Positions 5,863-40,345 of a stretch of 64,000 nucleotides of DNA are shown here, piece by piece. The DNA comes from Eremomyces bilateralis CBS 781.70 (taxonomy: Eukaryota): the NCBI GenBank assembly GCA_010015585.1, contig ML975160.1. One strand, 5' to 3'. Numbering within the stretch: the stretch's first letter is position 1; the number at the start of each line of letters is the position of its first letter. The position numbers and the translations under genes are program-made. The notes beneath the pieces were generated by a model, which saw only the letters and a list, made by a program, of their open reading frames with translations, was not told where the DNA came from and made no database searches.

Positions 5863-6710
5863 TCGAAAGGCTAAAGGAATGGCTATCGAAAGGAGCATAG
5901 AGGTGAGTGTAGCATTGCATTGTGGCAATAAGCGCGGCTTGCCCATGCATCGACTGTACATTAGCATTGGGACGAGCATCAGAATTGACGAAATAATAGC
6001 GGGCCATACGCTTGAATACTTCGATTTCCTATACCCTGCCAGTCCATTTCCTAACGATGCTTCCACCAACCCATTTACGGCCCATGCGTATCAAAAGCCA
6101 ATGTGCCGCTTTAGGTAATCCTACCCATAGTTGGCCTTCGGTATATGGGCTTGTACCGTCTCGCACAGTAGTTCAGTGGATCGTTGTTCTCTCGAGGAAT
6201 GAAATCAATCCAAAGCACAAATCCTACTCCCTTCCACGCTTCAGTTAAGTCCATTCCTTTACCCCCTCTACAAAAGGTATAGCCATCCTACCAATTCACG
6301 CATTATCGTAGTACCTGTTTTTACTCCTAACTACAAAAAGACATAACTAACTAGCTATTCTACTACTAATTCGTGCATTATCGGAGTACATGCTTTTGCT
6401 CCCTCTGCAATAAATCATAAGTGCTGGATATTATATCGATGAAAAATCGCTATCTTATCTCCATTATATTTTTCTACTGTTACCTGTTTTTATAATGCTC
6501 TTTACGGAATGATCGTCGTTACGTGGTCTCTGCAGCCGACACTTCCCTCATCCAAACTTTCAATATTCATAGGCCGACTGTATACAGCACGGTGTACGTA
6601 GTACATGTGTTGAGTCAAAATGGTCTAGACGTCGTTACCCATTACGGTAACACGTTGTAAACGGAAGGAGGAAGAAGAAACTCGATAGTATAAGGAGATG
6701 CTCCTTCATC

Positions 6711-6718
6711 TATAAAAG
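6711..6718 (+). promoter_or_regulatory. Candidate TATA box for the secreted chitin-binding gene
   Basis: TATAAAAG about 200 bp upstream of ATG 6913. Confidence 0.4.
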
Positions 6719-6912
6719 AGAGATGGATCTCACTCTCCGAGGTGAAAACAATCACTAAAACTTACCTTCCCTACGATCATATCTTCATGGCTCACACTTG
6801 ACAAAGCACCAGTGCTACTTGACTTCGTTCATCACTATTGCTTACTTCAACCGAATCTTAAACATCCCATCGGCTTCACCTCGCCTATCAAGTGCAAAAT
6901 CACCCTTACATC

Positions 6913-7966
6913 ATGAAATACCTCGCTTTCGCTTTCCTCATTATCGGCTCTCAAGCGGCGGCACTTCCTAATAAGGACCAGTTGGCCCCGTATGCAACCT
7001 CTCAAACGCGTAGCAAGGAAGTCTGGAACTGATGCATTGTTAGGTGGGAATTGGAGTCGCGTCAGGCGACCTTCGATTGTACCAACAAGCCCCCTGGCCT
7101 CTACACACACACCAGCGACTGTAACAAGTTTTTTCGATGTCTGACTCCGACCGCGCCGGCTAGAGAATTGGCGTGTCCCCAGGGCATGATATTCTCTTGT
7201 GCCGAAGTAGCATGTGTCCCGGGGCTACCTGTATTTCAGTGCCAACTTCATGTAACGGGGCAAGGGGTCTGCAATCGGCCGCTCGTCGACCCTCTCCCCT
7301 CCCTCTTCCCCCTTCCCCCCATTCCCCCCNNNNNNNNNNNNNNNNNNNNNNNNNNNNNNNNNNNNNNNNNNNNNNNNNNNNNNNNNNNNNNNNNNNNNNN
7401 NNNNNNNNNNNNNNNNNNNNNNNNNNNNNNNNNNNNNNNNNNNNNNNNNNNNNNNNNNNNNNNNNNNNNNNNNNNNNNNNNNNNNNNNNNNNNNNNNNNN
7501 NNNNNNNNNNNNNNNNNNNNNNNNNNNNNNNNNNNNNNNNNNNNNNNNNNNNNNNNNNNNNNNNNNNNNNNNNNNNNNNNNNNNNNNNNNNNNNNNNNNT
7601 CCCCCGATTCCCCCGATCCCCCCGATTCCCGCTTCTCAATCGGCAGCACTACCTGGTGCAGGCGAACAAATGGCCAAGCACGTACGCTCTCACCCAAGTG
7701 GCAAAGAAGTCAGGAACTAACGCATTTCTAGGCGGGAATTTAAATCACGCCGGGCGACTATGAATTGCGCCGGCAAGCGCAACGGCCTCTATGCTCACAC
7801 CACCTCCTGTGCCATGTATTTTTTATGTGTGTCTGGGAAGGCTACGGAACTTACCTGTCACTGGCCATTTATATTCAACTGCCGCATAGGTGGATGTGTC
7901 GTCGACGGAGACGTTCCGTGCGTATTCGATTCAACTGGGGAAGGAATATGCAATCTGTCACTCTAG
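6913..7966 (+). CDS. Secreted Cys-rich protein with two chitin-binding peritrophin-A/CBM14-like modules and a Pro-Pro-Ile repeat linker (spans an assembly gap)
   Basis: Signal peptide MKYLAFAFLIIGSQAAA; intron 6990-7043; module 1 CTNKPPGLYTHTSDCNKFFRC..ELACPQGMIF; (PPI)n on both sides of the N gap; intron 7678-7731; module 2 CAGKRNGLYAHTTSCAMYFLC..ELTCHWPFIF. Confidence 0.8.
7290..7630 (+). repeat. 9-bp coding tandem repeat (CCCCCGATT, Pro-Pro-Ile) flanking a 270-N gap (7330-7599)
   Basis: cccccc-att-cccccc before the gap; ccc ccg att ccc ccg atc ccc ccg att ccc after it. Confidence 0.8.
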
Positions 7967-9882
7967 TGTGCAATTTTGAAGGAGACAGGATGGTTTCGGT
8001 AGTTGAACGCGATGAATTGGCACTGTTATTCGGGCGCAACAGGAACTGGAATCCAGAATGATGACTATCTCCTTCAGACCTACATTATTTCAAAGCACAG
8101 CAAAACAGTAACCAGGTCCTAGGTAAACAACTTATTCTACGCATGCTTTGAAGCCTTGCGACCTGTGCCATTTCGTCTAAGAAAACGAAGTGACGCGCCA
8201 ATTCTGTTCCTCGGACCACTTATATGTACCTATAGATGGTAGTTACCTGTTGTATGTACAATTGGACTTTCCACAAATGAATCTGGTGCTGAGGTCTGCA
8301 AATGAAATAGCAATGAAATACACGATCAGGGGCTCGATTGACTTTTTTAGTGGCTGTCTGGACGCACGGCCCAGGGCCAGGAATCAGAATCTAAATTTGT
8401 GCTACATAGTGTAAGTGGAAGGTCGAGTAGACCGACCGGCCTAGGCCTCGGATAGTTCCGGGAAATAATCTAGATTTCTTTGCTCTAGCGAACGCTGTGA
8501 AAGAAACATGGACGGAGAGAGAACCGATTCCAAATGTTGGTATCGTAACCCGACGCCATATCTAGGATTCCCGCTCAAAACCTGATGCGCACCAGTCAGC
8601 AGAGTAGGACAACGGCCGTGTCCCGGGCGAATCCAGTGGCTTCAGTTACGGCACAACGGTAGTCCGGTCATTTTCGATAGTCCAAAGTGATACATGACCC
8701 TAAACAGTCACAGGTAGTTCCTCTTCCCCTTCATACGGTACTTACACAAGGACCCCTACCGTCGACTAATCAGTCAATTCGCTCGACCAGACGCAGCGTC
8801 TTCAAAACTGTGCTCGTCCCGCGTTTCCAGCAGCTATACCGGAAGCATCCTGTCAAACCCAAGGCCCGGTAATCCCTCAACACGCATGGGTGCACTGATG
8901 GAATTGACAATTTAGAGGTTCCTTCGGCGGAATGGAATCCTGCATTCTTGTAGGTAGATGGGTAGGATGGGATATACCCGTATCGATACTAGATATCGGC
9001 ACTGGAAACGGTGGAGGACGTGATATTGGTACTACTTCTGGGAGTCCATCAATCGAGCGTTCAAGAACACGTGGATGAACCTCTCACGACGAGCACGGGG
9101 AAGGCGGACATAGGAATATCGGGTAGGCGAAAGGATCGGTGTAGAGAACGGAATAGAACGGAACTTTTGTTGGTATCAAACCACAACCTAATCGAATCTA
9201 AGTCTCCCCCGAAGTGTGGTATGGTATCTCCCCTTTCCCCCTTTCCTCCTTTTTCTACCCACACCACGCCCTAGCCCACCACCCACGAATCAAACAAGCA
9301 AAACATCCGCAAAAAACAAACACCATTCCACCCATCCGCGATCCAGCAAAACAAAATCAAGCTCTTGGTGTGGTATAATGCAATCATGAACCCGTCCGTC
9401 CGTCCGTCGTAATTTTCTTATCTCGAGCATCAATCGAGGGGGGTATAATTTTCCCAGCGCAAGCAAAGCGACACATCAATTTTATAGCCGGTGGAAAAAA
9501 GCCGGCCGAGGGGAATTGGAGAGGAAAGGGATGAAAATGGAATGAGAAACAGAGTAGCGGGGAAGGGGCGCGGAAAGCAACGAGGTGATGATTCTCAAGC
9601 TCGCCAGGCAATGACCCTCGTCATTTCCGCTGTTTTCCACCCCTACAAAGCAAGGAACAGAAAGCAACGCAGAGCAGAGCGAACAGAAAAGCAACGGCAA
9701 AACAATAGCAAAAGCTGGGTATATTTGGGTATTTCGTGCTTTTGGTACCGTACCACCCGCGTAGTTCCCGCCCGTCATGATCTCGCATCAGAACTTTTTC
9801 ACATCCCCTCGCATCGCATGGCACGTCCACCTCCACCCACCCATCTCGCGATCCAACGGGATTTTAGGGTATGATGTATGAT

Positions 9883-38938: not shown

Positions 38939-40345
38939 TTAGAAGGCGGCAATGGCAAAGGCAATGGCAACAACGAGGCCAACGACCAGATTGGCGGACG
39001 CGGCGCCAGTGAAGGATGGCGGAGGGGTGGCGCTGGTTGGGTTGGGTGGGCCTCCGGACAACTCAGAGATAGGGGCGCTGGTTGGGTTGGGTGGGCCTCC
39101 GGACGACTCAGAGATAGGGGCGGCGGAGCCACCTCCGCTGGAGATCTCAGCCGGAGTAGGGCTTGAGTTTTCGGGATCGGAAGAGGCCGCGGTCGGCGCT
39201 AGAAGAGAAGCGGAGGGAATGGTGCCGCCGTTGCCACTACGGTACCAGTTTTGGATCGGGTCGCCCAAGCACTCGCCCATGGTCACTGCTCGGAAACCCA
39301 GAGCCTGGATACGATCGAGCATGAAGAGGGTCAGGTCCTGGGTACTCAGCGGATGGAGGTCATGGGAGATAGAAAGGAACTTGTTAGTAGTCGGAAGGAC
39401 GACAGCGTCCGCGAAGTTGTTCTTGGCGGTCTGGATCGACTCTGGGGTAAGGTTATTATAATCGTCCGTGTCCACATCAAAATAGCTGATGTGGTAGCCA
39501 AGATCTGCCATATCCTGCATACATGAGGGCGTAATGCATCCAGAGTAAGGTGGCCGCATGTAAGTAGGGAAGTACCCAAGAATATTCTGGAGGGCGATCT
39601 CGTTATAGAGAATTTCCTGCTTACGCAGTTCATCGCTGACTTTGTCCAAGTTCTGGTGCGACCAGGTATGGGAAGCAACCTGGTGACCGTCGTTGGCCAT
39701 ACGTTGTATAACAGCGCTCCAAGCAGGGGTCGAGTCGATCATTCCCTTGCCATTATTATTACCGGAGATAAAAAACGTAGCCTTAGCGTCATATTGATTA
39801 AGGAGATCCAGCACAGCATTAGTATAGATGGATGGACCATCGTCGTAAGTCAGGGCGACGGTCCCAGGAACAGTGCAGTGGTAGATACCGGCGCCACCAT
39901 ATGGGACGCTACCAAGATGTGGGCGATCAGTATTAAAAGTATCAGGTCCTGATGGCTTCTCGTTCGTACCGCAGCCAGATCCGTACTGGTACTGACAGTT
40001 TGGTGCGCTACAGTAACTAGAATTGTTACCACACCAACTCTTTCCGAAGGTTAGTTGCTATCATAACGACGCTGAAGTTATATAATAACTCACAGTAGGT
40101 GAACAGCAGTATCCTTCCGCGCAACTTGTTCCACCAAAGTCTGAACCGCATCGTCCATCGGTTCCTCCAATTGGTTCTTGGCGCGATTCCTTCAAACCTC
40201 TGGTCTCGTAGTCGGATCCGTAGTCGATTTCGATGCCTCTCAACACCTTCAGAGGGGGAGCACCGAATAATCCTGGCCCGTGGTAGCCCTCGAGAGCTAC
40301 CGTAATGGCCGGCAAAAGGGCCAGAGACGCGGCCGCAAGACGCAT
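38939..40345 (-). CDS. Secreted, probably GPI-anchored chitin deacetylase (CE4) with N-terminal CBM18
   Basis: Signal peptide; DGRCG..CAEGYCCSPT|SWCG (hevein-type); TYDDGP, HTWSHQNL, YMRPPY, DTDDY, SHDLH; Ser/Pro-rich stalk; hydrophobic C-terminus. Confidence 0.93.
39029..39123. repeat. Two-copy 45-bp coding tandem repeat in the deacetylase stalk
   Basis: ggcgctggttgggttgggtgggcctccggac(a/g)actcagagatagg x2, encoding APISE(S/L)SGGPPNPTS. Confidence 0.9.

Follow-up and report, generated by a model that had tools for sequence, protein, structure and literature searches.

Does the region at 6913-7966 of the 64,000-nt stretch of Eremomyces bilateralis CBS 781.70 analyzed here (contig ML975160.1; 'the window') encode one secreted precursor for two chitin-binding peptides, and how did such a gene come about? 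E. bilateralis belongs to the Eremomycetaceae in the Dothideomycetes, and a dung isolate is listed (PMC4150071); a plant host is therefore unlikely. In the arrangement we propose, a secreted precursor of ~314 residues would consist of a signal peptide, an LxxR propeptide, a first CBM14 module, a Pro/Ile rod of ~110 residues, a relic of signal-peptide tail and propeptide, KR/RR sites and a second CBM14 module. It would have arisen by internal duplication of the segment from the signal-peptide tail to just after the last cysteine. Kex2 would remove propeptide 1 and cut ahead of module 2, leaving a stalked lectin (module 1) and a free lectin of ~70 residues (module 2), both presumably disulfide-bound CBM14 folds, as modeled for module 2. 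Taken together, this Kex2-cut precursor of two lectins is a tentative reading, a little short of an even chance. The features of the locus are as follows.

6711-6716 (+), TATA-like hexamer ~200 nt 5′ of the ATG, a bare pattern match
6913 (+), start ATG, gene start
6913-6989 (+), exon 1, 77 nt, phase 2: signal peptide and start of propeptide 1 (sequence, hydropathy)
6990-7043 (+), intron 1, GT-AG, 54 nt, phase 2 (predicted from sequence)
7051-7062 (+), LESR, putative Kex2 site of LxxR type at the end of propeptide 1 (motif)
7063-7278 (+), CBM14 module 1, eight cysteines (Pfam PF01607, residues matched 7078-7233; cysteine pattern)
7288-7630 (+), Pro/Ile-rich linker, 9-nt repeat unit, mostly inside the gap (TRF, codon reading)
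7330-7599 (no strand), assembly gap of 270 N (sequence; contigs break here too)
7634-7677 (+), duplicated signal-peptide tail and propeptide 2, SQSAALP... (DNA alignment, translation)
7678-7731 (+), intron 2, GC-AG, 54 nt, phase 2, CTAAC branch site (alignment to intron 1)
7682 (+), competing GT donor for intron 2, giving a 50-nt intron (sequence)
7748-7753 (+), RR, canonical dibasic site ahead of module 2 (motif)
7754-7963 (+), CBM14 module 2, eight-cysteine pattern as in module 1 (Pfam, alignment, AF2 model, fold searches)
7964-7966 (+), stop codon TAG (sequence)

The internal duplication of signal-peptide tail, propeptide, intron and CBM_14 domain is real. Local alignment of the DNA of the two units scores 229.5, compared with a maximum of 48.5 in 200 shuffles, and bears out the original prediction that the prepro tail, intron and domain were copied as one unit; the similarity runs from the signal-peptide tail to just beyond the last cysteine. 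Both introns are indeed 54 nt long and in phase 2, and they match without gaps at 38 of 54 positions (binomial P ~4e-12; 23/32 in the interior with the splice signals removed, P ~4e-8), except that intron 2 begins with GC (GCACGT) rather than GT. The runner-up 54-mers for intron 1 in the window reach 30/54 on the plus strand and 27/54 on the minus strand. Intron identity does not differ significantly from that of the coding DNA (142/231; Fisher p 0.27). Of the signal peptide, only the tail was duplicated. Exon 1 contains a hydrophobic core with cleavage, judged by eye, near SQAAA/LP, whereas ahead of SQSAALP the core is replaced by Pro/Ile repeat (hydropathy of the best eight residues 0.75 vs 3.23). 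The modules are 42% identical (32 of 77 aligned residues), and in a six-frame search of the genome they are each other's only relatives; the exon 1 region is single-copy. Module 2 has been maintained, with an open frame and 8/8 cysteines shared at dN ~0.50 and dS ~0.70. The twin introns thus record the duplication event, and the locus offers a snapshot of polyprotein birth in which a copied signal tail, propeptide and domain supplies a ready-made convertase site.

Both modules belong to the chitin-binding family to which they had been assigned, scoring 34.6 bits (module 1) and 41.6 bits (module 2) with Pfam CBM_14 (PF01607; cut-off 22.1); NCBIfam gave no match. Each has the six peritrophin-A cysteines, with the spacing of animal CBM14 domains, plus one cysteine in an FxC motif and another in a C-terminal GxC motif, and this extra pair may form a fourth disulfide. 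The eight-cysteine pattern gives 2 matches among the 170 proteins compared, both unrelated. The AF2 model of module 2 (41 alignment rows, pLDDT 80) shows the two-sheet CBM14 fold with no helix. CBM14-type structures take up all of its first 11 Foldseek ranks and first 8 VIA rows, with animal and Avr4 domains ranking alike within a narrow range. Module 1, folded without an alignment, reached 47.5, too poor for use.

The known chitin contacts are another matter. The chitin-stacking residue of CHIT1 is Trp465 (PMC5459812), and CfAvr4 contacts chitin through Trp100, Asp102 and Tyr103 (PMC6128652). At the Trp465 position, two residues after the fifth cysteine, module 1 has a proline and module 2 a valine, and in alignments the three CfAvr4 positions hold neither an aromatic residue nor an aspartate in either module. 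Only 445 of 1184 domains, taken from 138 of the best 150 matches to module 2, have an aromatic at the Trp465 position, so that it is not required for CBM14 membership and its absence lowers, but does not exclude, chitin binding. Overall, chitin binding by the modules is somewhat more likely than not.

The motifs KR, RR and LxxR are used for calling Kex2 pro-domains (PMC8528282). K2PP-type precursors have such a motif behind a disordered pro-region; here LESR precedes module 1 and RR module 2, and the FKSRR of unit 2 aligns with the LESR of unit 1. KR and RR had both been placed just ahead of domain 2; the RR is there in the sequence, but the KR spans the exon junction and is created only by splicing at the GC donor. 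A second KR lies inside module 2, so dibasic sites alone are no proof of processing. Given one ORF, we regard Kex2 cleavage as probable. The proposed release of two peptides from one precursor holds to the extent that a single Kex2-processed ORF is the likeliest arrangement, but the products would be unlike, with module 1 keeping the Pro/Ile stalk and module 2 free. About 34 of the ~110 linker residues are seen in sequence. A three-residue Pro-Pro-Ile repeat would form a stiff polyproline-II rod with the isoleucines on one face.

The same ORF with an uncut linker would give a bivalent lectin whose polyproline-like rod allows it to cross-link chitin fibrils like the multi-domain peritrophins. 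Tandem CBM14 domains joined by linkers are the usual animal architecture, as all of the best 150 of 613 protein matches align in at least two stretches (a ranking that favors such proteins), and the KR inside module 2 also fits a protein that is not cut at such pairs. Against this, the RR sits at the canonical exposed end of a pro-domain, in register with LESR, and the propeptide relic has been kept alongside it, making an uncut lectin unlikely.

Release of module 2 from the Kex2-cut precursor also requires that intron 2 is spliced appropriately. Read as 54 nt, it starts at 7678 with GCACGT, and GTACGC, a GT donor, follows 4 nt downstream. Aligned without a gap, the GC donor corresponds to donor 1; it matches the U1 consensus at 7/11 positions, compared with 6/11 each for donor 1 and GT-7682. 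In the Pro/Ile frame, splicing at the GC donor gives 103 open codons with all eight cysteines, whereas GT splicing meets a stop after 30 codons and retention after 39, neither with a cysteine. To be encoded, module 2 therefore needs a donor of a minority type that has a rival close by: GT-AG introns make up 98.7% of fungal introns (PMC7072748). In 264 kb of the genome, donor hexamers at 300 branch/acceptor anchors show an excess of ~46 for GTnnGn and ~4 for GCnnGT, and GTACGC heads one other plausible intron with open frames on either side. Enrichment of single hexamers (GCACGT, 5 vs 1.3; GCATGT, 8 vs 1.8) was rejected as support for the GC donor because at most of these sites the frames are short or a stronger GT is close at hand. 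We infer that at least a fraction of the splicing at intron 2 uses the GC donor.

This donor pair could itself be regulatory. Most transcripts would then use GT-7682 or retain the intron and encode module 1 with its stalk, a GC-spliced minority would add module 2, and the donor pair would set the ratio of the lectins. The early stops after GT splicing or retention, beside the 103 codons opened by the GC donor, are what such a gate requires, and GT donors dominate the genome, with GTACGC in use elsewhere. However, the GC site is the slightly better U1 match, and the overlap may be incidental because any donor ending in GT at +5/+6 creates a second site. We consider a splice gate doubtful, slightly more so than the uncut lectin.

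For the Kex2-cut precursor, the remaining question is whether one ORF crosses the assembly gap. Four sequencing runs were compared over 6300-8700, of which three yielded contigs. Contigs of X1 and X2, DNA runs of a single sample that may have supplied the assembly, end at 7330-7599 as well, so that the gap is a real repeat problem, and no contig from X1, X2 or X3 bridges it. One X2 contig enters the gap by 75 nt; the first 30 of these bases continue the module 1 frame as ten stop-free Pro/Ile-type codons, and at least ~195 gap bases are unseen. A period-9 repeat (TRF) encoding the same Pro/Ile unit stands on both flanks. Scaffold gap sizes are estimates. Taken literally, 270 nt would lead unit 1 on in the frame at 7600, where a stop follows whichever of the three splice outcomes applies. 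For a two-module ORF, the gap length modulo 3 would have to be 2 if the GC donor is used and 1 if the GT donor is, and a gap of 269 nt gives a precursor of 314 residues. The in-frame join through a Pro-rich linker put forward in the original prediction is thus supported by the repeat at both edges, but the join itself is unreadable in 270 N and its literal length is out-of-frame. Since module 2 comes without a signal core, its secretion requires exon 1 and a separate second gene is unlikely. This, together with the stop-free Pro/Ile codons at the start of the gap, makes it likely that one ORF of ~314 residues spans both modules.

Were there a stop in the gap, module 2 would be a gene in its own right or a decaying duplicate. 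The unseen bases and the out-of-frame literal length leave room for this, and the protein collection yielded neither module. Yet the missing signal core and the shared repeat on both flanks argue against two genes, and eight cysteines and an open frame kept at dS ~0.7 argue against decay. Moreover, gene finders miss GC-AG introns (PMC5677156), so that such an intron, combined with the gap, could account for the absent annotation. Two genes or a dead copy are improbable. Least probable is a frameshift in the gap repaired by GT-7682, yielding a two-module ORF with a Pro/Arg-rich last stretch and neither SQSAALP nor KR: with the GT splice, the frame that begins at 7602 has no stop through module 2 (104 codons, eight cysteines) and GT is the common donor type, but two compensating changes would be needed, the duplicated propeptide codons differ mostly silently in the Pro/Ile frame (by eye), and the gapless match between the introns favors 7678.

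With the Kex2-cut precursor as the working model, we turn to the origin of its modules. An exhaustive protein search with module 2 gave 613 matches at E ≤ 0.001, the best 150 of which are 24-42% identical to it. Organisms were sought for 20 of the matches; 13 are annotated, all of them (13/13) as animals, and 7 carry no organism. Fungal single-domain matches may hide among the other 463 because the ranking favors multi-domain proteins. The best single-domain scores are 34.7 bits for module 2 and 27.1 bits for module 1, compared with at most 16.3 and 10.8, respectively, against five Avr4-type domains, a difference inflated by the much greater size of the animal set and by its selection with module 2. 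In a search of PDB sequences, both modules match animal CBM14s, and neither matches PfAvr4 or CfAvr4 at E ≤ 1, whereas the control, the third CBM14 gene of the same genome (L004), matches them at 2e-15 and 4e-15. The earlier analogy with Avr4 is therefore sound at the level of the fold and fails at that of sequence. Atlas neighbors of the modules fall in CBM_14 clusters that are mostly arthropod where known (0.90, 0.89), and serve as leads only.

In a domain tree (43 rows, 57 columns), the five Avr4-type domains group together with support of 100/97, with both modules outside and little else resolved; modules 1 and 2 are not joined with support. By sequence, the modules are outside the Avr4 family. 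For a possible horizontal transfer no donor can be named, as the tree places neither module and the AU test does not reject both as sister to the Avr4 type (p 0.25). One could picture an invertebrate-derived, non-Avr4 eight-cysteine CBM14 that acquired fungal introns and a Kex2 pro-domain and was duplicated, its second lectin gated by GC and GT donors four bases apart. This is an improbable combination; if true, it would be a splice-gated, protease-released lectin pair in a non-pathogenic fungus.

Other searches added little. For module 1, a word-based search among longer proteins yielded 4 candidates, none of which scored, and for module 2 one among proteins of near length turned up no homologue; a three-row alignment search returned three proteins, all Avr4-type relatives of L004. 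None of 40 pattern matches in viral contigs was confirmed. The one of 126 metagenome contigs that passed proved to be a 14-residue chance match beside a stop, and the one of 32 prokaryote genomes that passed has a frame full of stops.

Two further CBM14 proteins came to light during these comparisons. L004 (contig C2, 1372-1725, +) is intron-free and encodes a 117-residue protein with an N-terminal hydrophobic stretch and an Avr4-type CBM14 domain; its presence in the same genome allows a direct comparison of lectin roles in fungi that have no plant host. P0168, annotated as a protein of the mite Oppia nitens and located on a contig of 15.6 Mb, has two Avr4-type CBM14 domains in tandem, grouping with the fungal ones, possibly through fungus-mite transfer or contamination.

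The two-in-one precursor plan is already known from defensins, and each ingredient seen here has precedent. Five precursors of fungal defensins (maglosin, beauvesin2, manisin, pochlasin2, asosin) are described as predicted to release two defensins with removal of the spacer (PMC4165938). Like the protein proposed here, they are secreted and have two cysteine-rich modules with a spacer predicted to be cut by a convertase. Here, in contrast, the modules are CBM14 domains, a long Pro/Ile stretch and what is left of a signal peptide make up the spacer, and the duplicated unit includes an intron. KEPs, defined by at least three repeated motifs separated by KR, RR or KK (Le Marquer et al. 2019; PMC6339444), and K2PP proteins (PMC8528282) are described as also having a signal peptide, with Kex2-type sites preceding similar units. 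The present gene differs from KEPs in that two units are seen, though the gap could in principle hold more, and in that the first site is LxxR rather than dibasic. No fungal two-CBM14 Kex2 precursor was found in main-text literature; Chang and Stergiopoulos 2015 (CBM14 transfer), the Pyronema alignment and the KEP tables may bear on this point or on the subtype.

Avr4 shares the CBM14 fold (VIA Z 5.8 for CfAvr4, 6BN0, and 5.4 for PfAvr4, 4Z4A; PMC6128652), eight cysteines and secretion from a fungus. Its fourth cysteine pair, however, lies in an N-terminal helix and a loop, whereas here the pair is C-terminal and the module 2 model has no helix; the present protein also has two modules and none of the Trp100/Asp102/Tyr103 contacts. 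Animal peritrophin-A and chitinase CBM14s (CHIT1 ChBD, Aplysia EHEP 8IN3, Der p 23 and the multi-CBM14 proteins of amphioxus and insects) are the best sequence and fold matches, with the same six-cysteine spacing and a start of the FxCxGKxxGLY type. Even so, the best single-domain score is only 35 bits, the pair formed by FxC and the C-terminal GxC is absent among the proteins searched, and here the introns are short and fungal-type and a pro-domain carries Kex2-type sites. The modules point to a non-Avr4 subtype of fungal CBM14 that lacks the known contacts with chitin and probably differs in its fourth disulfide. The value of the finding is moderate, as each ingredient has precedent and the gene has no close relative for a conservation test.

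Another comparison is with Pyronema confluens, reported to have 13 small secreted CBM_14 genes, mostly of 80-140 residues, for which the authors speculate on wall protection from microbes and transfer from insects (PMC3778014). Compared by published description rather than by sequence, the two cases share CBM14-only secreted proteins in a non-pathogenic ascomycete; Pyronema has 13 separate genes and E. bilateralis one two-module gene. By analogy, wall protection against microbes would be the nearest functional model. The lectins released from the Kex2-cut precursor would most likely coat chitin, that of their own wall first, against microbial or invertebrate rather than plant chitinases, which is the weakest step of the proposal.

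Run X3, which we take by guess to be RNA, covers exon 1 and what follows to 7267 at a depth of 3-4 (flanks 42 and 549); its empty stretch at 7268-7844 is uninformative on expression, and the contigs list no spliced joints over 6300-8700. The depth-4 contig reads through intron 1 unspliced. Another begins at 7044, the first base of exon 2, as a fork between spliced and unspliced reads would, and was not counted in the absence of a joint.

The locus lies between a zinc-finger/RRM gene (+) and a Mug60/KHD4-type KH gene (−). Contamination was rejected as an explanation, since independent contigs carry each half of the locus several kb into these neighbors. High-depth X3 contigs (5970-6667; 8302 onward) run far beyond the stop codons of both, which suggests, if X3 is RNA, that long neighbor 3′ UTRs close in on the gene. 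Past the TATA-like box but ahead of the start codon, two ATGs (6723 and 6787, +) may open short upstream frames; a promoter scan with bacterial models was uninformative for this fungal gene. Elsewhere in the window, 38939-40057 (−) encodes a polysaccharide deacetylase (PF01522) with a Cys-rich N terminus and a hydrophobic tail, which by eye resemble a chitin-binding module and a GPI signal.
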